Virus record (IMG/VR): IMGVR_UViG_2531839665_000020
Coordinates: 1 to 26,759 of that record
Source: a virus
Lineage: Duplodnaviria; Heunggongvirae; Uroviricota; Caudoviricetes
Direction: 5' to 3' (one strand)
Length of the DNA: 26,759 nt
A program made the translations under genes and the position numbers. The notes under the pieces were generated by a model that saw only the letters and a list, made by a program, of their open reading frames with translations, made no database searches and was not told the origin of the DNA. This document shows, in pieces, positions 1 through 15,112 of this stretch; position 1 is the stretch's first letter, and every line of letters begins with the position of its first letter.

Positions 1-381
1 ATGCAGAAAAATGTGACTCCCGGCAGGCGAAAAGGCTGCCCTAATTATCCTCCCGAATTTAAACAGCAGCTCGTTGCTGCCTCCTGTGAACCCGGGATAT
101 CCATCTCAAAACTTGCTCTTGAAAATGGCATTAACGCCAATCTGTTGTTCAAATGGCGACAACAATGGCGCGAGGGAAAGCTGCTATTACCTTCTTCAGA
201 GAGCCCCCAGCTACTTCCTGTGACTCTCGATGCAGCTGCCGAACAGCCAGAATCGCTCGCAGAGGACCCGGAAACCCTCAGTATCAGCTGTGAGGTAACG
301 TTCCGGCACGGGACGCTCCGCTTCAATGGCAATGTCAGCGAAAAGCTCCTGACTCTGCTGATACAGGAACTGAAGCGATGA
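1..381 (+). CDS. IS66-family accessory protein orfA (TnpA-like)
   Basis: 126-aa ORF starting at base 1; N-terminal helix-turn-helix-like region (KQQLVAASCEPGISISKLALENGINANLLFKWRQQW) typical of IS66 orfA; stop overlaps the orfB start (ATGA at 378-381). Confidence 0.85.
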   Translation: MQKNVTPGRRKGCPNYPPEFKQQLVAASCEPGISISKLALENGINANLLFKWRQQWREGKLLLPSSESPQLLPVTLDAAAEQPESLAEDPETLSISCEVTFRHGTLRFNGNVSEKLLTLLIQELKR

Positions 382-725
382 TCCCGTTACCTTCCGGGAC
401 CAAAATTTGGCTGGTTGCCGGTATCACCGATATGAGAAATGGCTTCAACGGCCTGGCTGCGAAAGTACAGACGGCGCTGAAAGACGATCCCATGTCCGGC
501 CATGTTTTCATTTTCCGGGGCCGCAGCGGCAGTCAGGTTAAACTGCTGTGGTCCACCGGTGACGGGCTGTGCCTCCTGACCAAACGGCTGGAGCGTGGGC
601 GCTTCGCCTGGCCGTCAGCCCGTGATGGCAAAGTGTTCCTTACGCAGGCGCAGCTGGCGATGCTGCTGGAAGGTATCGACTGGCGACAGCCTAAGCGGCT
701 GCTGACCTCCCTGACCATGCTGTAA
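378..725 (+). CDS. IS66-family orfB (TnpB)
   Basis: 115-aa ORF with IS66 TnpB signature ([22 protein letters not shown] ... FIFRGRSG); translationally coupled to orfA. Confidence 0.9.
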
Positions 726-774
726 ATCTCTTTATCCTGGTTGTCACAGAATAAGCCCGGTAAAATACGGGCTT

Positions 775-2313
775 ATGAACGACATCTCTTCTGACGACAT
801 CTTCCTGCTGAAACAGCGCCTGGCCGAACAGGAAGCGCTGATCCACGCCCTGCAGGAAAAGCTGAGCAACCGGGAGCGCGAAATAGACCATCTGCAGGCG
901 CAGCTGGATAAACTCCGCCGGATGAACTTCGGCAGTCGTTCCGAAAAAGTCTCCCGCCGTATCGCACAAATGGAAGCCGATCTGAACCGGCTTCAGAAAG
1001 AGAGCGATACGCTGACTGGTAGGGTGTATGACCCGGCAGTACAGCGTCCGTTGCGTCAGACCCGCACCCGTAAGCCGTTCCCTGAATCACTACCCCGTGA
1101 CGAAAAGCGACTGTTGCCTGCGGCGCCGTGCTGCCCGAACTGCGGCGGTTCACTGAGCTATCTGGGCGAGGATACCGCCGAACAGCTGGAGTTGATGCGT
1201 AGCGCCTTCCGGGTTATCCGGACGGTACGGGAAAAACATGCCTGTACTCAGTGCGATGCCATCGTGCAGGCACCTGCACCTTCGCGGCCCATCGAGCGGG
1301 GTATCGCCGGACCGGGGCTGCTGGCCCGCGTGCTGACCTCGAAGTATGCAGAGCACACCCCGCTGTATCGCCAGTCAGAAATATACGGCCGGCAAGGTGT
1401 GGAGCTGAGGCGTTCACTGCTGTCGGGCTGGGTGGATGCATGCTGCCGGCTGCTGTCTCCGCTGGAAGAGGCGCTTCATGGCTATGTCATGACTGACGGC
1501 AAACTCCATGCCGATGATACCCCGGTCCAGGTACTGCTGCCGGGTAATAAGAAGACGAAGACCGGGCGGTTGTGGGCGTATGTTCGTGATGACCGCAATG
1601 CAGGGTCAGCGTTGGCACCTGCAGTGTGGTTCGCTTACAGCCCGGACAGAAAAGGCATCCATCCGCAGACTCATCTTGCCTGCTTCAGCGGTGTGCTGCA
1701 AGCGGATGCGTACGCCGGGTTCAACGAGCTGTATCGCAATGGTGGGATAACGGAAGCTGCCTGCTGGGCTCATGCCCGCCGAAAGATCCACGATGTGCAC
1801 GTCCGCATCCCGTCAGCACTGACGGAAGAAGCCCTGGAGCAGATCGGTCAGTTGTACGCCATAGAGGCGGATATAAGGGGAATGCCGGCAGAGCAGCGGC
1901 TTGCTGAACGTCAGCGAAAAACGAAACCGTTGTTGAAATCCCTGGAAAGCTGGTTGCGTGAAAAGATGAAGACCCTGTCGCGACACTCAGAGTTGGCGAA
2001 GGCGTTCGCGTACGCACTTAACCAGTGGCCGGCACTGACGTACTATGCGAACGATGGCTGGGTGGAAATCGACAACAACATCGCTGAAAATGCCCTGCGG
2101 GCGGTCAGTCTGGGTCGTAAAAACTTCCTGTTCTTCGGCTCTGATCATGGTGGTGAGCGGGGAGCGCTACTGTACAGCCTGATCGGGACGTGCAAACTGA
2201 ATGACGTGGATCCAGAAAGCTACCTTCGCCATGTGCTTGGCGTCATAGCAGACTGGCCGGTCAACCGGGTCAGCGAACTGCTTCCGTGGCGCATAGCACT
2301 GCCAGCTGAATAA
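775..2313 (+). CDS. IS66-family transposase (orfC)
   Basis: 512-aa ORF with N-terminal leucine-rich coiled coil, CxxC...CxxC zinc-finger region and DDE-type core, following orfA/orfB as in IS66. Confidence 0.9.
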
Positions 2314-2396
2314 CACATCCCCGTCAATACGGCCCTCGCTGTACGCTTACGGTATTTCTGACTCATGGCCGTTTTTATAATGCGGCCAGGTGTTTT

Positions 2397-2747
2397 TTAC
2401 AACATTGTCAGGGCGTTAAGGCGGGATGTTTTTGGCTGACGCCAGTCCAGCTTATCGAGGAGCATTGCCAGTTGCGAGCGGGTAATGGATACCTTACCGT
2501 CACGCACCGCAGGCCAGATAAACTGGCCTTCCTCCAGGCGTTTGGTGAACAGGCACAGACCATCAGCATCAGCCCAAAGAATTTTAACGGTGTCCCCCCG
2601 TCGGCCACGGAAGATAAACAGGTGACCGGAGAAGGGATTATCATTCAGCACATGTTGTACCTGTTCTCCCAGTCCGTTGAAGGATTTACACATATCGGTA
2701 ACGCCGGCAACGAGCCAGATACGGGTACCTGATGGGAGTGAAATCAT
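2397..2747 (-). CDS. IS66-family orfB (TnpB), second copy
   Basis: 116 aa, MISLPSGTRIWLVAGVTDMCKSFNGL..., clearly paralogous to the 378..725 product but diverged. Confidence 0.85.
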   Translation of the reverse strand: MISLPSGTRIWLVAGVTDMCKSFNGLGEQVQHVLNDNPFSGHLFIFRGRRGDTVKILWADADGLCLFTKRLEEGQFIWPAVRDGKVSITRSQLAMLLDKLDWRQPKTSRLNALTML

Positions 2748-3169
2748 CTTCCCCTCCCGCTCAGTTCGCGGATTAACATCGTGAGCAGCTCTGGCGATGG
2801 ATTTTCCAGCGTCATGTTACCGTGACGGAATTCCACCTTGCAGGAACTGGCACTGACTCTGGTCTGAGTGGAAGTGGATAAAGACGGCGCAATGGCCGCC
2901 ACAGGTTCTTTCTGCTCATCCGGCGTTATTTCTACAGGTAATAATTCAACGCCAGTGTCAGAAGAGGTTGTTACCGGAAGACGCCGCGAAACATGCCCTT
3001 CGTTCTGCCAGAGCCTGAGCCATTTGAAAATAACATTATCATTGACGCCATTTTCTCGTGCAATCTGTGTAACACAAGCTCCAGGTTGTGATGCCAGTTC
3101 AACCATACGAAGTTTGAATTCATTCGAATACTTTTTACGAGGTTCTTTTCGCCAGTCCTGTAATTCCAT
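2744..3169 (-). CDS. IS66-family orfA, second copy
   Basis: 141 aa with the same HTH-like motif (EFKLRMVELASQPGACVTQIARENGVNDNVIFKWLRLW); ATGA-type overlap with downstream orfB. Confidence 0.8.
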   Translation of the reverse strand: MELQDWRKEPRKKYSNEFKLRMVELASQPGACVTQIARENGVNDNVIFKWLRLWQNEGHVSRRLPVTTSSDTGVELLPVEITPDEQKEPVAAIAPSLSTSTQTRVSASSCKVEFRHGNMTLENPSPELLTMLIRELSGRGR

Positions 3170-3296
3170 ACTTAGATGTCCGTCTGTGTCAGATGGGCGT
3201 CTAAGTTACCAATTCTTGTCTAATGGCTACATACGGCGGTCGGTTTACGCTTACTCTAATTCGTCAGATTCTGACCAGACGGTTCAGGCTGTACGC

Positions 3297-3431
3297 TTAC
3301 GATTCTTTAGGCAGATAATAATTTTGATCAGCCCATTCAACTGCCGTCATTGGTACAACCCTGACCAGAGGCTGCAGCGCAACCGAAACGGCAGCCATCA
3401 TATTATTCAGTTGTTGCTCTGATATATTCAT
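3297..3431 (-). pseudogene. Terminase large subunit (gpA-like), N-terminal ~44 codons only, truncated by IS66 insertion
   Basis: Translation MNISEQQLNN...PMTAVEWADQNYYLPKES matches the lambda gpA N-terminus pattern (MNIS...TAVEWADANYYLPKES); the reading frame runs into the IS66 terminus at 3300 and stops at 3297; start overlaps the 3' end of the Nu1-like gene. Confidence 0.7.
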
Positions 3432-3912
3432 CGAGTAAATCCGGTAATTTATCCCCTGCCCGCGCACACTGATTTGCCCCCTTAGCAATAAGGGTTTTCA
3501 GATGGTCAAGATGGCGCGGTGTTAAATCAGGAAACTGTCGCTGCATGGATAAAGGGATGGAATCAAGCGTACTGGATAACGCCATTGCCAGCTTACTGAG
3601 GGCAAAAATACAGAACCCGGTGTCAATAAGTTTTCCTTTTGACACCTCATTTTTTAACTGCTGTGTAACAGCCTGTTCTGCTGTCAGTTCCCATCTGGCA
3701 ATAAGCAATTTCTCCTCATAGTCGTCTTCGCTATCGCCATCAGGCACATCGTTTTTACTTCTCCTCAGATACGATATGTAAAAATCGCGCCAGGCATCCA
3801 GATCCAGTTGCCCTCGCTTATTCGATATCGGGGCACCCGGCAATTTCTGCAATCTGCGAAGCTGGCGATCGGTCAGACTTAAATGCCTGGCAACTTCAGT
3901 CTGCGTAGCCAC
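3403..3912 (-). CDS. Terminase small subunit, Nu1-like
   Basis: 169 aa; C-terminal region (TGFCIFALSKLAMALSSTLDSIPLSMQRQFPDLTPRHLDHLK...LLDEYI) resembles Nu1/NohA; GTG start preceded by GAGGTGAGGA; cos site immediately upstream. Confidence 0.8.
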   Translation of the reverse strand: MATQTEVARHLSLTDRQLRRLQKLPGAPISNKRGQLDLDAWRDFYISYLRRSKNDVPDGDSEDDYEEKLLIARWELTAEQAVTQQLKNEVSKGKLIDTGFCIFALSKLAMALSSTLDSIPLSMQRQFPDLTPRHLDHLKTLIAKGANQCARAGDKLPDLLDEYIRATTE

Positions 3913-3954
3913 TCCTCACCTCGCAAAAACTCTCACCTCACAATCACAACAAAA

Positions 3955-4120
3955 CCGGTCATGTCCGGTTTACATGTCCGTTTTTTGCACATGTCCGGTT
4001 CACGGACAGCCTGTTTTTATATTTTTCATATAGTTAACTTGCAGAGAAACCGGACATGGATCCCGGAAAATTTTCATAAATAGCGAAAACCCGCGAGGTC
4101 GCCGCCCCGTAACCTGTCGG
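3955..4120 (-). other. cos site: cosN cohesive-end sequence (4096..4107) plus cosB-like repeated terminase-binding motifs (3955..4060)
   Basis: Reverse complement of 4052-4120 reads CCGACAGGTTACG/GGGCGGCGACCT/CGCGGGTTTTCGCTATTTATGAAAATTTTCCGG, matching the phage lambda right-end/left-end junction as I recall it; three direct CATGTCCG(G) repeats (3960, 3973, 3990) and one inverted copy (4050) lie between cosN and the Nu1-like gene. Confidence 0.85.
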
Positions 4121-4144
4121 ATCGCCGGAAAGGACCCGCAAAAA

Positions 4145-4159
4145 TGATAATAATTATCA
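4145..4159. promoter_or_regulatory. Perfect 7-1-7 palindrome TGATAATAATTATCA (Fur-box-like hexamer content)
   Basis: Inverted repeat read directly from sequence, about 150 bp upstream of the 4308 ORF and 40 bp from cosN. Confidence 0.3.
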
Positions 4160-4307
4160 TCTACATGTCACAACGTGCATCTACGCCATCAAACCACGTC
4201 AAATAATTAATTATGACGCAGGTATCGTATTAATTGATCTGCATCAACTTAACGTAAAAACAACTTCAGACAATACAAATCAGCGACACTGAATACGGGG
4301 CAACCTC

Positions 4308-4532
4308 ATGTCAACGAAGAACAGAACCCGCAGAAAAACAACCCGCAACATCCGCTTTCCTAACCAAATGATTGAACAAATTAACATCGCTCTTGATCAG
4401 AAAGGTTCAGGTAATTTTTCAGCGTGGGTTATTGAAGCCTGCAGAAGAAGATTAATTAATGAAAAACATGCTCAATTTGTACCCAACAAAGACAAACACG
4501 ACCAGAGCACCTGTTCAGACAGGTTTACTTAA
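4308..4532 (+). CDS. Small basic hypothetical protein (possible DNA-binding)
   Basis: 74-aa ORF, Arg/Lys-rich N-terminus (MSTKNRTRRKTTRNIRFPNQ); transcribed opposite to the late operon; no family recognised with confidence. Confidence 0.5.
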   Translation: MSTKNRTRRKTTRNIRFPNQMIEQINIALDQKGSGNFSAWVIEACRRRLINEKHAQFVPNKDKHDQSTCSDRFT

Positions 4533-5393: not shown

Positions 5394-5861
5394 TCACGGT
5401 ATACACTGGGTACGGATATATTCCTGTGCTCCTTCCAGTTGCTTCTGCATTGCCATCAGCCGTTCTCTGAGGATGAAATAATCCCGTTCAGCGGCTTCTG
5501 CCAGTCGGGGACCGGTTGCATTATCCACGCCGGAGGTGATGGGGGCTTTACGCAAGGAGCCTGGACAGTTGGCGTTGATGCGCAGGCGCTTACGACCAGC
5601 GGCAACATCAGCACGCAGAGTTTCATTTTCAGCTCTCGCATCGGCTAATTCCCTCGAGTATCTGGCATCAAGTGCAGCGACATCACGCTGGCGTACCTGC
5701 ATATCAGTAATTGTCACGTTCGCCAGCTTCAGCTCACTGGCTTTTTTATCGCGTTGCGCTTTGTAGGTAATGGCGTTATCGCGGTAATGATTCAGCCCCA
5801 GACTAAGCACACCACAGGCTACCAGCAGGACAATAATCACCACACACAGAACACGGTTCAT
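5394..5861 (-). CDS. Rz: Spanin inner-membrane subunit Rz
   Basis: 155 aa; N-terminal TM segment followed by [25 protein letters not shown]...[10 protein letters not shown], a close match to lambdoid Rz. Confidence 0.9.
5456..5641 (-). CDS. Rz1: Spanin outer-membrane lipoprotein Rz1 (embedded in Rz, +1 frame)
   Basis: 61-aa ORF nested in Rz; lipoprotein signal (LPLVVSAC) then Pro-rich stretch ([16 protein letters not shown]) typical of Rz1; exact start (M1 vs M6) uncertain. Confidence 0.75.
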
Positions 5862-6012
5862 ATCCCCCTCACCCCACCAGCCATGACAAAGTTAAGACGC
5901 GCCAGGCAGTGGAAAAGCAAATAGCAACCAGCATTAGTGAAAATGAAATGCCGACGATTACACAGAGGATCTTCGCCAGCGTTATGAGCTTGTCTGACAT
6001 GCTTAATCCTCT

Positions 6013-6195
6013 TCACGATTTCAACGCAATGACCAGTTTTGCCAGCCCATACAGCATCGGAGACACAGCAATACCGACCGCCACCCACTTAATAGCAAAA
6101 GCCAGCGCTCTGCTGACGTCATCAGTTACAGGCGCTTTCAGTTCAAGGCCGTTTTTCATAGTCAATCTCAACAGAATTCGTTTATACTTTCCCAT
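6013..6195 (-). CDS. Small membrane protein (60 aa), unassigned, between R and Rz
   Basis: ATG at 6195 preceded by GGGAGAA; Lys-rich N-terminus and one C-terminal hydrophobic helix (IKWVAVGIAVSPMLYGLAKLVIAL); the longer ORF-track version (6013..6273) would read through the terminator hairpin, so the internal start is preferred. Confidence 0.4.
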   Translation of the reverse strand: MGKYKRILLRLTMKNGLELKAPVTDDVSRALAFAIKWVAVGIAVSPMLYGLAKLVIALKS

Positions 6196-6227
6196 GTTCT
6201 CCCTTGCCTTACTCAAGGTCAGAAACA

Positions 6228-6267
6228 CAAAACCCCGTTTGCGGCCAACAAACGGGGTTTTACTTTT
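6228..6267. terminator. Bidirectional rho-independent terminator
   Basis: Perfect 9-bp stem CCCCGTTTG / CAAACGGGG (6233-6241, 6249-6257) with 7-nt loop, A-run upstream and T-run downstream, so U-tract on either strand. Confidence 0.6.
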
Positions 6268-6350
6268 ATTCACTTAGTTTTTGCCAGTTCGCAGGATTTC
6301 GTGTTATCCGCCCGCGTTGGCCAACGTCATTTTTCAGCAAAATATTCTGC

Positions 6351-6884
6351 TTATCTGTCAATTCCCCAGCACGCCAGTGCACTTTCCTGGTCTCGCCGGG
6401 ATACCTGACCGTAGCAATTATTTGAGCGGATACGGCAGTCTCTGCCACCGTCCTTAATCCACCAGCGAATCGCTTCGCAGGCACCTTTTCGATCACCTGC
6501 ATTAATCCGTCTGTAAAACGTAGACGGGAAACACTTACCGGGGCCAATGTTATAAGGACAAAATGACGCGATACCCGCCTTCTGGGGTTCGGTCAGCGGT
6601 ACTTTAATATTGCGCTCCACCCACTCCAGCGCCTTATCACGTTCAATGGCGTTAACCTGGTCGCACTTTTCCTTCGATAACTTCATACCCGGGACGACAG
6701 GCTTACCATCCACTCGGGTGGCACCGCGGCAGATGGTCCAGATCCCCGCACCATCACGGTATGCCGTGGTGTGGTTACCTTCTTTTTCGTCAAGAAACTG
6801 GTCGAGGATTTCAGGCGCAGACGTCCCTGCACCAATCAGCGCCAGAACGGCAGCCGACAGGCCGTATCTGATTTTTGCGTTCAT
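6351..6884 (-). CDS. R: Endolysin R, SAR-type lysozyme (T4-lysozyme-like fold)
   Basis: 177 aa; N-terminal signal-anchor-release-like segment (YGLSAAVLALIGAGTSAP) and catalytic E/D/T region (EGNHTTAYRDGAGIWTI) as in phage 21 R. Confidence 0.9.
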   Translation of the reverse strand: MNAKIRYGLSAAVLALIGAGTSAPEILDQFLDEKEGNHTTAYRDGAGIWTICRGATRVDGKPVVPGMKLSKEKCDQVNAIERDKALEWVERNIKVPLTEPQKAGIASFCPYNIGPGKCFPSTFYRRINAGDRKGACEAIRWWIKDGGRDCRIRSNNCYGQVSRRDQESALACWGIDR

Positions 6885-7009
6885 GGATATTTATCAGGAT
6901 TTATCGGTTCCGGACCCCTGGATATGTTAAGTCTTCAGCCCGCCGGTGGTGGGCACTGGCGTAAACCCAACAATGTGAGATGGCTGCCTCGCAAAGATAA
7001 TGAACAGAT

Positions 7010-7273
7010 ATGAATGAAGAAAATACAGCGCTTTTTGACAGAATTTTCACTCTTGAGTTACAGGTCGGTTTTCTTCTCCCAAAGATAATCAAAGCCATGG
7101 ATGCACTTGGTAAGAATAACGCTGTGTCAGATTACCTGATCGCCGAAATGGAACATCTCATTAAAGAAATACCAAAGACCGATGCTCGTGATGATAAAAG
7201 ATTCCTCAGGGCTGCTGAAAATGCTCTTTCAACAGTGAAGCGCAGTTCAGGCGCGCAGCTAATTCAAGAATAG
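7010..7273 (+). CDS. Hypothetical protein (87 aa), convergent with the 7206..7736 gene
   Basis: AT-rich ORF with protein-like helical composition; weak SD; 3' end overlaps the opposite-strand gene by 68 bp. Confidence 0.45.
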   Translation: MNEENTALFDRIFTLELQVGFLLPKIIKAMDALGKNNAVSDYLIAEMEHLIKEIPKTDARDDKRFLRAAENALSTVKRSSGAQLIQE

Positions 7274-7736
7274 TTTCTTTCATTTCATCTGCTGCAAGCA
7301 CCTCATTTTTTGTTGGGGTGCTTTTTTTCAATTCAGTAACACAGCACTCCAGTTTTTCAATACGTGATTCAACATCATCTTTTTCTGACCGCAGTGTTGA
7401 CGGCGGCATCTTCAGAGAACAAGTAATTCTTCCCGGTAGCTTTCCTTTGTAGGTTATCAACACATCCTGCGCCTCTAAAATTACGGGGCGATTTTCCGGC
7501 AACGGACCATCCCCTTCACATAACCCGGCAGCAACATCCATGAAAAACTGCTTCGCCTGCTTTTTCGCCTCAGCTTCGTAAAACTCCAGCGTGGCACCTT
7601 CAGTACGGTCAAGACTAATCGCCACATCTGGCAACAACAGTGACGGATACCCACCAATTTCCAGTGCCACAGTAACAGTAATCTTATCCGGGTAATTATT
7701 TATCCCTTTAACAACCAGTTCGTATTTTTTCTTCAT
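7206..7736 (-). CDS. Hypothetical protein (176 aa) inserted between holin and endolysin
   Basis: ATG 5 bp downstream of the holin stop with GGAGAG SD (translationally coupled to S); lower-GC codon usage than flanking lysis genes; no domain recognised. Confidence 0.65.
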   Translation of the reverse strand: MKKKYELVVKGINNYPDKITVTVALEIGGYPSLLLPDVAISLDRTEGATLEFYEAEAKKQAKQFFMDVAAGLCEGDGPLPENRPVILEAQDVLITYKGKLPGRITCSLKMPPSTLRSEKDDVESRIEKLECCVTELKKSTPTKNEVLAADEMKETILELAARLNCASLLKEHFQQP

Positions 7737-7740
7737 CGCT

Positions 7741-7956
7741 TTACTCTCCCCGCGCCGCCTTACGACGGTCCTCTCTGATTTTGAAATACAGGTTAGTCAG
7801 ATATGTCAGCAGCCCAAACAGCAGACTCCCCAGCACGCCTATTGCCGCCCACTGAGACGGAGAGACTTTGTCCAGCAGCTGCAGGAACCAGTAGCCCGTT
7901 CCCACCGCTGACGTGGTGTATGACACACCTGTTGTGATTTTTTCCATCTGGTACAT
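7741..7956 (-). CDS. S: Class II holin / pinholin S (phage 21 S-like) with dual-start motif
   Basis: 71 aa [71 protein letters not shown], very close to S21; Met1/Met4 dual start. Confidence 0.9.
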
Positions 7957-8031
7957 ACCCCGTCTCTCGCAATCCGGAAGCTCACAACAACAGGAGGGGC
8001 ATCAGCTCACACCGACAGCCCCTGCGCATGG

Positions 8032-8301
8032 TTACATCATCATTTCGCCGTCAGGCTGAGGCTCACTGCTACCGTCAGGCTGAGACACGACGCCATCTGA
8101 AACAGCACTGTCACCCGCGCCGTCTTCAGGCTCAGGAGCAGCCGGTCCCCCCAGCAGCTCATCCAGAATGGCATCCACTTCAGCATCAAGACGCGCCTCA
8201 AGATTCTGGCGGAGTTGCTGTTTCAGTGCGCTTCTGACTTCTTCAGAGCGCAGGACGTCCTTCACTGCTTCAGCAGTGACCAGAGATTTTATTTCTGACA
8301 T
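8032..8301 (-). CDS. Acidic hypothetical protein (89 aa)
   Basis: Internal ATG at 8301 chosen because the longer ORF (to 8457) overlaps the upstream 60-aa gene; product MSEIKSLVTAEAVKD... with Asp/Glu/Pro-rich tail. Confidence 0.55.
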   Translation of the reverse strand: MSEIKSLVTAEAVKDVLRSEEVRSALKQQLRQNLEARLDAEVDAILDELLGGPAAPEPEDGAGDSAVSDGVVSQPDGSSEPQPDGEMMM

Positions 8302-8338
8302 GGGATTTTCTCGTTGAAAGGTGTTGTTAAGAAAGTTG

Positions 8339-8521
8339 CTACGAAATGAGAGGCTCTTCGGGTTTTGTTCCGGCTGACTGGCTGGCGCTGATTTTTTCCG
8401 CCGCCGCGGCATCAATCTTTTTGCGTATATAGTTCCGGATAACCTTATACCCGCCACTTACCAGATATAACGTGCACACCACCGTGCAGAAATACAATAA
8501 AATAAGCTGTACAAATCTCAT
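8339..8521 (-). CDS. Small membrane protein (60 aa)
   Basis: ATG preceded by GGGAGGG; single TM helix (LILLYFCTVVCTLYLVSGGY) followed by a basic tail. Confidence 0.5.
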   Translation of the reverse strand: MRFVQLILLYFCTVVCTLYLVSGGYKVIRNYIRKKIDAAAAEKISASQSAGTKPEEPLIS

Positions 8522-8668
8522 TATCCCTCCCGGTTATTGATATGGTGTTGACATCGTTAATACCTGTTGGTTAAAAAAGTGTCCTGCATGTTTTGCTTTG
8601 GATATAACGACATTTGCCGCCGGTTCTGGCTCCTTGTTTTCCCTGCCCCGGCGGCCTTTTTTTCCTGC

Positions 8669-10606: not shown

Positions 10607-10949
10607 CGAATTTCTCCCGTGTACAGGAACAGAGTTAAAAAGCCGGAACCGGAATCAAATCACAGGATGACCATCTGCCAGTGGCTGGTCGTAAAAAAAA
10701 GGCCGCGCCATGCGCAGCCGGAAATAAAGGGATAACGATGATAGTTTGAGAAAAACAGAAATAACACTTTTGTGGCAAAGCATGGTGCCGGGTGCCTCCC
10801 GGTGAATTCAGTACCAGCACCTGAATCCGCGATTATCCCATATACCTAGTTGCTGATTGCCCCTCCGCACAGGGGGATTCACCATGCAGTAGTATTTTTA
10901 ATAAACAGTAAACAAAAAAATCAAGCATTATGCAGGCTGTTTCTTTTTA

Positions 10950-14765: not shown

Positions 14766-14921
14766 TTACTCCTCAGGTTCGTAAGCTGTGAAGACAGCGA
14801 CCTCCGTCTGGCCGGTTCGGATTCGTACCTCGCAGAGGTCTTTCCTCGTTACCAGTGCCGTCACTATGACGGTTAAACAGATGACGATCAGGGCGATTAA
14901 CATCGCCTTTTGCTGCTTCAT
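14766..14921 (-). CDS. hok: Hok/Gef-family type I toxin (51 aa)
   Basis: MKQQKAMLIALIVICLTVIVTALVTRKDLCEVRIRTGQTEVAVFTAYEPEE matches the Hok family; ATG preceded by AAGGAGAAG; an in-frame upstream ATG at 14978 gives a 70-codon mok-like extension. Confidence 0.85.
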   Translation of the reverse strand: MKQQKAMLIALIVICLTVIVTALVTRKDLCEVRIRTGQTEVAVFTAYEPEE

Positions 14922-14924
14922 AGC

Positions 14925-15010
14925 CTGCTTCTCCTTGACCTTTCGGTCCGTAAGAGGCAATCTATATGTGACGAGCATATAGGGGCCTCACTTCGATTTA
15001 TAGTCGGGTG
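14925..15010 (+). ncRNA. Predicted Sok-like antisense RNA region (approximate)
   Basis: Placed by analogy with plasmid R1 hok/sok: leader elements GCTTGAGGCTATCTGCCTC and GATTGCCTCTTACGG resemble the R1 hok leader as I recall it; exact RNA ends not determinable by eye. Confidence 0.3.
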
Positions 15011-15112
15011 GGGCTTTTATCTATCTGCCGTTGGTGTTCATGCCCGAGGCAGATAGCCTCAAGCACCCGCAGCAATTCTACTTAACTCTGCCGTTACAGC
15101 AAGCCGTTTTCG

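Follow-up and report, generated by a model that had tools for sequence, protein, structure and literature searches.

In lambdoid phages, morons of the lambda type, for example bor of lambda, adjoin the lysis genes and are encoded on the strand opposite to the late operon, and the OOP RNA/cII pair of lambda and the sar/ant pair of P22 are instances of convergent cis-antisense control. The locus considered here belongs to a Caudoviricetes virus (IMG/VR record IMGVR_UViG_2531839665_000020, positions 1 to 26,759); this whole stretch of 26,759 nucleotides (nt) is called the window, all coordinates refer to it, and its minus strand is the late strand. Between the holin gene S and the endolysin gene R the window carries two convergent genes whose 3' ends overlap: gene 1, on the late strand, encodes a protein of 176 amino acids (aa) of the YdfR family, and gene 2, on the plus strand, encodes an 87-aa protein. 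The YdfR protein of E. coli K-12 (103 aa) binds the N-terminal catalytic half of RNase E via its first 72 residues and co-purifies RNA; its overproduction alters few transcripts, and no growth effect of its overexpression was reported (PMC13232886). By homology to K-12 YdfR, the product of gene 1 is probably an RNase E- and RNA-binding late protein. In our literature search DUF1327, the Pfam family of YdfR, was mentioned in just one paper, and no paper on the 87-aa family was found. Gene 1 is a member of a known and very common family in its usual place, and gene 2 is a rare, genuine accessory gene. Comparison of divergent phages indicates that the two genes travel as a unit and constitute a conserved overlapping cassette, shared by several enterobacterial prophages. 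What is new, as far as the searched literature shows, is that the two genes form an apparently old cassette in which they converge, one segment is dual-coding and a terminator is embedded, and that relics of this cassette persist in the common forms of YdfR.

The first-pass annotation of the window had treated the 176-aa gene as an insert of unknown function in a lysis cassette whose S-R-Rz order is normally uninterrupted, and had recognized no family for either protein. The 176-aa protein matches Pfam DUF1327 (PF07041) over aa 1-100 with 150.4 bits (cut-off 25, E 1.7e-44) and PHROG 2091 with E 2.4e-82, in addition to several further PHROGs, and the 87-aa protein matches PHROG 18136, a family of unknown function, with E 3.8e-55 over residues 1-87 of the 87-position profile; NCBIfam gave no match for either. 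A 99%-identical 176-aa protein in nr (P0039) carries the name "YdfR family protein", and a protein search returned 287 YdfR-family matches at E <= 0.001. A megablast search with positions 6900-7760, a query consisting mainly of ydfR, gave matches in 3023 of 5426 complete E. coli genomes. Rows sampled down the whole ranking were nearly all annotated YdfR or DUF1327, and those in the top half also had a class II holin under the match. The order S-ydfR-R is likewise annotated in the Shiga toxin (Stx) phages Stx2_95 (Stx2a) and 86 (Stx2) and in BP-4795. In this phage group S and R are thus as a rule separated, and in the window R and Rz are also split by small open reading frames (ORFs), contrary to the earlier supposition. 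Homology to a standard lysis-cassette component had been named beforehand as evidence that would speak against an unknown insert, and such homology is what the searches revealed: gene 1 is a YdfR-family late gene, translationally coupled to an S21-type holin.

The late-strand gene order is S, ydfR, R, with the holin directly upstream of ydfR and the endolysin as the next gene downstream of the cassette. On the minus strand the holin/ydfR junction reads GGGGAGAG TAA AGCG ATG. The GGAGAG Shine-Dalgarno (SD) sequence of ydfR, already noted in the first reading, lies within the 3' end of the holin gene, well spaced at 7 nt before the ATG; the gap between stop and start is 4 nt rather than the 5 bp first given. 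Both ORFs, their coordinates, the 68-bp overlap of their 3' ends and their GC content below that of the flanking lysis genes were as first described, the GC values being 0.537 in S and in R, 0.467 in the part of ydfR encoding aa 1-112, 0.415 in the ydfR tail and 0.388 in the non-overlapping part of the 87-aa gene. An AlphaFold2 model of the whole YdfR protein (predicted local distance difference test, pLDDT, 59.5) has an N-domain of three strands and a helix, a linker of low confidence and a tail in the form of a helical hairpin. In the N-domain, strands 5-14, 18-27 and 38-43 and helix 50-73 have pLDDT values of 65-87, and residues 72-118 are below 50.

The annotation of ydfR is inconsistent. 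In an E. coli O103:H2 record 100% identical over 6900-7760, the Prokaryotic Genome Annotation Pipeline (PGAP) tags the gene as a partial pseudogene, "incomplete, missing C-terminus" (L001 4502-4837, corresponding to window 7401-7736), and other assemblies list an intact 176-aa YdfR protein. The 176-aa length class recurs with N-domains that are just 68-71% identical (P0057, P0065-69). Because a near-identical 176-aa protein is named as intact in nr and the same length recurs with divergent N-domains, the PGAP call appears to be an artefact of comparison with longer relatives.

The first reading had left room for the 87-aa ORF to be an untranslated antisense artefact, which the pattern of substitutions contradicts. 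Pairwise ratios of nonsynonymous to synonymous substitution (dN/dS) outside the overlap are 0.03-0.21, with an excess of changes at third positions, for example 5/3/25 between the Citrobacter prophage L008 and the viral contig L018. The homologues, at 27-66% identity, are found in five further settings: that Citrobacter prophage, Escherichia phage CharmingMan (L005), a group of viral contigs (L018-L023), L030-L032 together with L033, and L034/35 together with L036/37. A word-index search of 5.8 billion proteins yielded 30 clusters of the family, and a full HMMER profile search of 1.84 billion yielded nine representatives; no further lineages came from a metagenome scan or from two scans of species-representative genomes. 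An identical ORF in E. coli O103:H2 FWSEC0007 is annotated as WP_024246813.1, "hypothetical" in RefSeq. The protein has an isoelectric point of 5.4 and a grand average of hydropathy (GRAVY) of -0.24, and its AlphaFold2 model (pLDDT 66.5) contains three helices; it is predicted to be a cytoplasmic three-helix protein. Since the gene is under purifying selection, is followed by a terminator supported by scan, fold and covariation, and is preceded by a covarying plus-strand leader, the evidence shows that it genuinely codes for a protein and is an accessory gene whose family is very small. Its suspected moron-like character is supported by its location on the opposite strand, its own terminator, a GC content of 0.39 versus 0.54 in S and R, and its patchy presence in related prophages, its DNA occurring in 45 of the 5426 complete E. 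coli genomes versus 3023 matched by the mainly ydfR query.

Whether the pair is gained and lost as a unit had been proposed as a check, and the two genes were indeed found together across divergent phages. In 9 of 9 loci examined, the 87-aa gene is antisense to the neighbouring late genes, and in every homologous locus recovered its 3' end is overlapped by a convergent late-strand ORF. A lysis cassette was seen wherever the flank suffices, which it does not in L033, a contig of 1 kb, or in L037. The gene precedes the holin in Citrobacter, L034 and L036, lies between holin and endolysin in E. coli, and follows the spanin or a glycosyltransferase gene, before the terminase genes, in CharmingMan, L018 and L030. 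Overlaps of exactly 68 bp occur in the loci of E. coli, Citrobacter, CharmingMan and the L018 type, and L030, L033, L034 and L036 have overlaps of 86, 47, 20 and 20 bp, respectively; the shorter ones are due to stops that come earlier in the same DNA register. With the exception of the most divergent locus, the 3' end of gene 2 and its terminator always lie inside a late-strand ORF that ends in a tail like the C-terminal tail of the window YdfR (called C1). This partner takes one of two forms, either a stand-alone ORF of 51-57 aa with a strong SD (GGGAGG, AAGGAGGT or GGAGGT) and an ATG, or a longer protein with the same tail at its end. The 144-aa partner in L033 was aligned by hhalign to the YdfR profile over N-domain and tail (probability 92%, E 7e-7) and ends at the same point. 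The L034 partner resembles that of L033 by eye, and hhalign supports its tail alone; Pfam DUF1327 reaches neither, despite N-domains that look DUF1327-like. In L036, the most divergent locus, the 61-aa partner has no recognizable C1-like tail.

The late-strand frame contains no stop codon over 165 nt in 9 of 9 loci, and the other two minus-strand frames contain 1-6 stops each. Given the base composition, the chance that the frame stays open over the 33 non-overlapping codons is 0.06-0.22 per locus. These comparisons indicate that the convergent arrangement is more than chance. Beside the cassette of L034, an 83-aa late-strand ORF (3579-3830, minus strand) between the 87-aa gene and the holin has by eye a strand-strand-strand-helix pattern and no Pfam match; it may be a second DUF1327-like paralogue.

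The C1 tail was modelled with helices at residues 114-138 and 143-162. It is hydrophilic (GRAVY -0.58) and weakly matches the GCN4 coiled coil (E 0.0099), which appeared as noise, in the tail only, when PDB sequences were searched with the YdfR profile. A word-index search with the tail alone found only fragments from frameshifted assemblies. C1 contains the antisense of the gene 2 terminator (KKSTPTKNE) and of the last 22 codons of gene 2; the terminator antisense, as KKSxPxKxE, is also the best-conserved motif of C1. In the segment read on both strands, the plus frame is the more constrained of the two. Because amino-acid constraint on C1 is weak and its top motif is just terminator antisense, C1 seems to be selected mainly to stay translated.

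The stem of the terminator (7296-7323) and its T-run were detected by a scan, with a fold energy of -15.5 kcal/mol and a z score of -3.6. In an alignment of eight loci, 91% of the cells are paired, three pairs are compensatory, and one invariant U.G pair is valid on the plus strand only. The leader consists of a closing helix, CAGCC (6936-6940)/GGCTG (6982-6986), an 8-bp hairpin 1 (6941-6948/6954-6961) and an alternative hairpin 2 (6975-6979/6988-6992). Across ten loci 95% of its cells are paired, compared with 21-49% in slid-partner controls, and four pairs are compensatory; here, too, U.G pairs are valid only on the plus strand, and GATGGCTG is invariant in 10 of 10 loci. A conserved structured leader of this kind argues for a plus-strand RNA. 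An Rfam search of 6300-8000 at E <= 1, which included the leader, gave no match. From the candidate promoter, which was read by hand and scores below the threshold of the consensus scan, transcripts would begin at about 6935, where the leader structure has its foot; L030 has TTTACT-16-TATCCT in the same register. In the loci outside the alleles listed in the table, an SD of the AAGG/GAGG type lies nearby upstream of the 87-aa gene.

YdfR-family proteins of 114, 161, 176, 183, 211, 246, 268, 296, 305 and 329 aa are built from interchangeable segments. The window YdfR corresponds to the first 176 residues of the 329-aa protein of Stx2_95, and the two cease to be homologous only a few bases from the stop codon, where the window has CAGCAGCCC TGA and Stx2_95 has CAGCAGCCT GAA. 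The long forms therefore retain the antisense of the last 20 codons of the 87-aa gene and its terminator without the 5' part of the gene. The 114-aa form of BP-4795 can be read as the sequence of the window minus approximately 6952-7412; what it retains of the leader of the 87-aa gene, the left half (CCCTGGATATGTTAAGTCTTCAGGCCAGCGGTGG), is joined directly to codon ~110 of ydfR. Together, the break in the long forms and the fusion in BP-4795 mean that both common YdfR forms hold relics of the cassette that is intact in the window. By these alignments the 114-aa and the 211-329-aa forms common in E. coli are carriers of such relics, and the window form looks ancestral. At the deletion junction in BP-4795 a repeated AGTCTTCAG / CGGYGG microhomology is seen, and the end of the 114-aa YdfR (TPPLA*, stop included) is encoded by the leader-hairpin remnant (BP-4795 = L004 2434-2500; window 6915-6951 and ~7412).

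Of the 5426 complete E. coli genomes, 125 carry the tail segment at a coverage of >=80%. Twenty-nine of the 45 genomes with DNA of the 87-aa gene have it at >=80% coverage and the remainder are partial. In one partial E. coli copy examined (L007 2501-2658), an 88-bp deletion removes the SD, the start codon and the first ~22 codons of the 87-aa gene and leaves the 176/177-aa ydfR intact; the same deletion occurs in the viral-contig loci L024-L028. In Stx2 phage 86 (L003), the convergent position after a 268-aa YdfR is occupied by gp06 (1729-2043, plus strand), whose 104-aa product is unrelated to the 87-aa protein, and the leader start (CCCTGGATATGTTAAATCTTCAGCCCGCCAGCGGTAGGACACTGGCG) recurs in front of gp06. 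It may be that the leader is a reusable front end for differing cargo genes.

Table 1. Features of the ydfR/87-aa gene cassette and of the adjoining lysis genes
Feature	Position	Strand	Basis or remark
Gene 1, ydfR family, 176 aa + stop	7206..7736	-	ATG start, ORF list
YdfR N-terminal part, aa 1-112, DUF1327 domain and linker	7401..7736	-	AlphaFold2 model; common to 114-aa form of BP-4795
YdfR C-terminal tail C1, aa 113-176, 64 aa	7209..7400	-	Predicted helical hairpin or coiled coil
Gene 2, 87-aa gene	7010..7273	+	ATG start, ORF list; convergent with ydfR
Dual-strand coding segment, 68 bp	7206-7273	both	3' ends of ydfR and 87-aa gene
Candidate weak sigma-70 promoter of gene 2	6900..6928	+	Read by hand: TTTATC, 17 nt, TATGTT; 7 of 12 matches
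Structured 5' leader of gene 2	6936..6992	+	Alignment A8, 10 loci
SD position of gene 2	6999..7003	+	AATGA here; AAGGA in G1/2 and L015 alleles (alignment A8)
Rho-independent terminator of gene 2, inside ydfR coding sequence	7296..7333	+	10-bp stem, 8-nt loop, T-run
Holin S, class II (phage 21 S-type), Met1/Met4 dual starts	7741..7956	-	Pfam Phage_holin_2_1, E 3.6e-33; PHROG holin
Endolysin R, SAR (signal-anchor-release) type	6351..6884	-	Pfam Phage_lysozyme, E 1.9e-25; PHROG endolysin
Rz / Rz1 spanin genes	5394-5861 / 5456-5641	-	Embedded pair in same cassette

The region is the late region of an Stx-phage-like lambdoid prophage. The neighbouring genes, all on the minus strand, encode a NanS-p-type esterase, DUF1378 and DUF826 proteins, the S21-type holin, the SAR-type endolysin, the products of two small ORFs, and Rz/Rz1. 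Positions 4465-25446 are 99.8% identical to a prophage of E. coli O103:H2 FWSEC0007, copies of insertion sequences (IS) aside; the flanks, 1-4464 and 25447-26759, are arranged differently from the record of that prophage (L038), which has IS3 copies, so that the source of the window is a related rather than the identical strain. The gap between R and Rz (5869-6273, minus strand) holds the two small ORFs, 6013..6273 and 5869..6000, for which PGAP gives 183 and 132 nt; they match PHROGs 1115, 4493 and 3246, all families of unknown function. In Stx2 phage 86 and BP-4795 the R-Rz slot is occupied by the antirepressor gene ant. The interval between esterase and holin (7957-8668) holds the DUF1378 and DUF826 genes. 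The prophage small RNAs (sRNAs) AgvB, AsxR and Pas were weighed as candidates for the cassette; a 2026 preprint maps PasA and PasC to the esterase-holin interval, outside the cassette. Elsewhere in the window, Rfam matches above the gathering score are the STnc100 sRNA (10747-10913, minus strand), just upstream of the esterase gene, the sok antitoxin RNA (14919-15068, minus strand), with hokD annotated in a related record, and DicF (22012-22063, plus strand).

The reading that we consider probable, with real reservations, is that gene 2 is a separately transcribed moron which is coupled to late transcription by the convergent antisense overlap and possibly acts on YdfR. According to this reading, gene 2 would be transcribed alone from the weak promoter at ~6900-6928, in the lysogen or early in infection, and its transcription would stop at 7296-7333; Q-antiterminated late transcription from the other side would then occlude it. 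The two RNAs would be complementary over ~120 nt (7206 to ~7330), so that a reciprocal coupling of expression, like that in lambda OOP/cII, would result. The gene 2 product, an acidic three-helix protein, would most likely act in the cytoplasm and, more speculatively, on the C1 tail of YdfR; equally speculative is that YdfR would modulate RNase E late in infection. Several observations weigh against this reading. A consensus sigma-70 scan upstream of gene 2 found no promoter in any of the five loci scanned, and the SD of gene 2 is weakened in the window, with AATGA in place of AAGGA. Amino-acid constraint on C1 is weak (dN/dS 0.23-0.88, flat codon-position counts), and what matters in C1 may be that it is translated, not that it offers a specific binding surface. 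Gene 2 is dispensable, for about one third of the E. coli genomes with its DNA have partial copies, and it is near-complete in just 29 of 5426. The structure models are of modest confidence (pLDDT 66.5 and 59.5), and fold searches gave generic helical matches only. RNase E binding is known only for the 103-aa K-12 YdfR, overexpression of which changed few transcripts (PMC13232886), and the window allele differs from it. A bolder version, which we regard as improbable, is that the cassette is an old bidirectional switch beside lysis cassettes, in which the small protein or its mRNA restrains the YdfR/endolysin part of the late transcript in the lysogen, and late transcription, once induced, silences it and frees the RNase E-binding late protein.

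Of the competing explanations, an independent moron deserves the most attention, unlikely as we hold it to be. Gene 2 would then be a lysogenic-conversion, superinfection-exclusion or anti-defence gene unlinked to YdfR, and the overlap and terminator would reflect tail-to-tail compaction. Low GC, varying presence among related prophages, the gene's own terminator and leader, its placement at any of three sites around the lysis genes (ahead of the holin, between S and R, or behind the spanin or glycosyltransferase genes) and the weak amino-acid constraint on the C1 tail all fit this explanation. Compaction does not, however, require a late-strand ORF that stays open through the terminator in 9 of 9 loci and has a strong SD and an ATG when it stands alone. 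Moreover, PADLOC found no match at E <= 1, and the 87-aa protein has no signal peptide or hydrophobic segment (GRAVY -0.24), features that lambda Bor/Lom or SieB-type exclusion proteins usually have. The defence, abortive-infection or superinfection-exclusion role suggested by the first-pass annotation thus gained no support: in addition to the PADLOC result, Pfam and NCBIfam revealed no defence, toxin or toxin-antitoxin (TA) domain in either protein, and fold searches were uninformative. A Foldseek search with the model of the 87-aa protein against PDB and BFVD returned nothing at E <= 0.001, the hits being designed or generic helical bundles. The reading that the region merely contains decay products, with the 176-aa ORF a truncated ydfR pseudogene and the 87-aa ORF a chance antisense ORF in a defective prophage, could point to the PGAP call in the O103:H2 record, to the existence of longer forms of 296-329 aa, and to the IS3 insertions and truncated terminase gene of the prophage in that closely related record. 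The recurrence of the 176-aa class with N-domains of 68-71% identity, the common end point in the divergent L033 homologue, strong purifying selection on the 87-aa ORF, the covarying terminator and leader, and relics of the 87-aa gene in the long forms largely refute it by sequence comparison, and we give it hardly any credence.

A more elaborate rival is a protein-level neutralizer pair similar to TA or immunity systems, in which YdfR or its tail is harmful if mistimed and the 87-aa protein neutralizes it in the lysogen; variable YdfR C-termini with differing opposite-strand ORFs would then resemble polymorphic effector/immunity cassettes. Co-occurrence of the 87-aa gene with a C1-type tail over deep divergence is in its favour, but is trivial given the physical overlap, and long C1-bearing YdfR proteins are common without the 87-aa gene (125 genomes with C1 versus 45 with gene 2 DNA). 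The high modularity of YdfR C-termini, from 114 to 329 aa, and the unrelated convergent gp06, with the same leader, after the 268-aa form in Stx2 phage 86 also accord with such a pair. Against it are the convergent layout, which is unlike that of type II TA operons, the finding of no toxin, TA or PADLOC domain, and the lack of any reported growth effect of overexpressed K-12 YdfR (PMC13232886). The short local likeness of the 87-aa protein to helix 1 of the colicin immunity protein Im7 would add to the case, but it covers residues 36-58 only (23 residues; E ~0.5 in a PDB hmmsearch, probability 48% in hhalign), its SDY motif is lost in distant homologues, and there is no Pfam match, so that it was judged a short chance match. 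We consider a neutralizer pair improbable. A type II TA or known defence system was rejected because no domain matched and the genes are convergent rather than a co-directional operon. A type I TA system of the hok/sok kind was likewise rejected, in that both products are hydrophilic (GRAVY -0.24; tail -0.58) and 6300-8000 has no Rfam match, the true hok/sok lying elsewhere in the window.

YdfR-family genes are among the commonest uncharacterized prophage genes of E. coli and are located inside the lysis cassette of Shiga-toxin-type phages. The present finding suggests that these genes ancestrally had a convergent partner, shared a dual-coding segment with it and enclosed its terminator. Such a cassette explains why YdfR lengths vary so puzzlingly and why the pseudogene annotation is inconsistent. 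Should late mRNA or the timing of lysis be under control of the pair, this would be relevant to the release of toxin from Stx prophages, and the bidirectional switch, if true, would link RNA decay control to lysis timing. If the pair is not regulatory, it is still a clean example of a moron terminator overprinted by a translated late-strand ORF.

Compared with YdfR of the K-12 Qin prophage (PF07041), the window protein has in common the N-terminal domain, the holin-adjacent position in the sampled E. coli rows and membership in an uncharacterized family; it differs from K-12 YdfR (103 aa) and from the common phage form (114 aa) in its 64-aa C1 tail, which is overlapped by the convergent gene. 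The overlap recalls Rz/Rz1 of the same cassette, which are also overlapping lysis-region genes with partners inherited as a unit. Rz1, however, is read from the same strand as Rz in another frame, and the products have a known joint function, whereas ydfR and the 87-aa gene converge over 68 bp. The 87-aa gene resembles lambda bor-type morons in being small, low in GC, antisense to late transcription, located by the lysis cassette, equipped with its own terminator and variably present. In contrast to bor-type morons, its product has no lipoprotein or signal sequence, no clear promoter precedes it, and it overlaps its neighbour, with the terminator inside the neighbour's coding sequence. With OOP/cII and sar/ant the locus would share a convergent transcript that can pair with the 3' portion of a phage gene, in this case from 7206 to ~7330. 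Unlike in those pairs, the antisense transcript would encode a conserved protein, and its target would be a late gene rather than a regulator of the choice between lysis and lysogeny.

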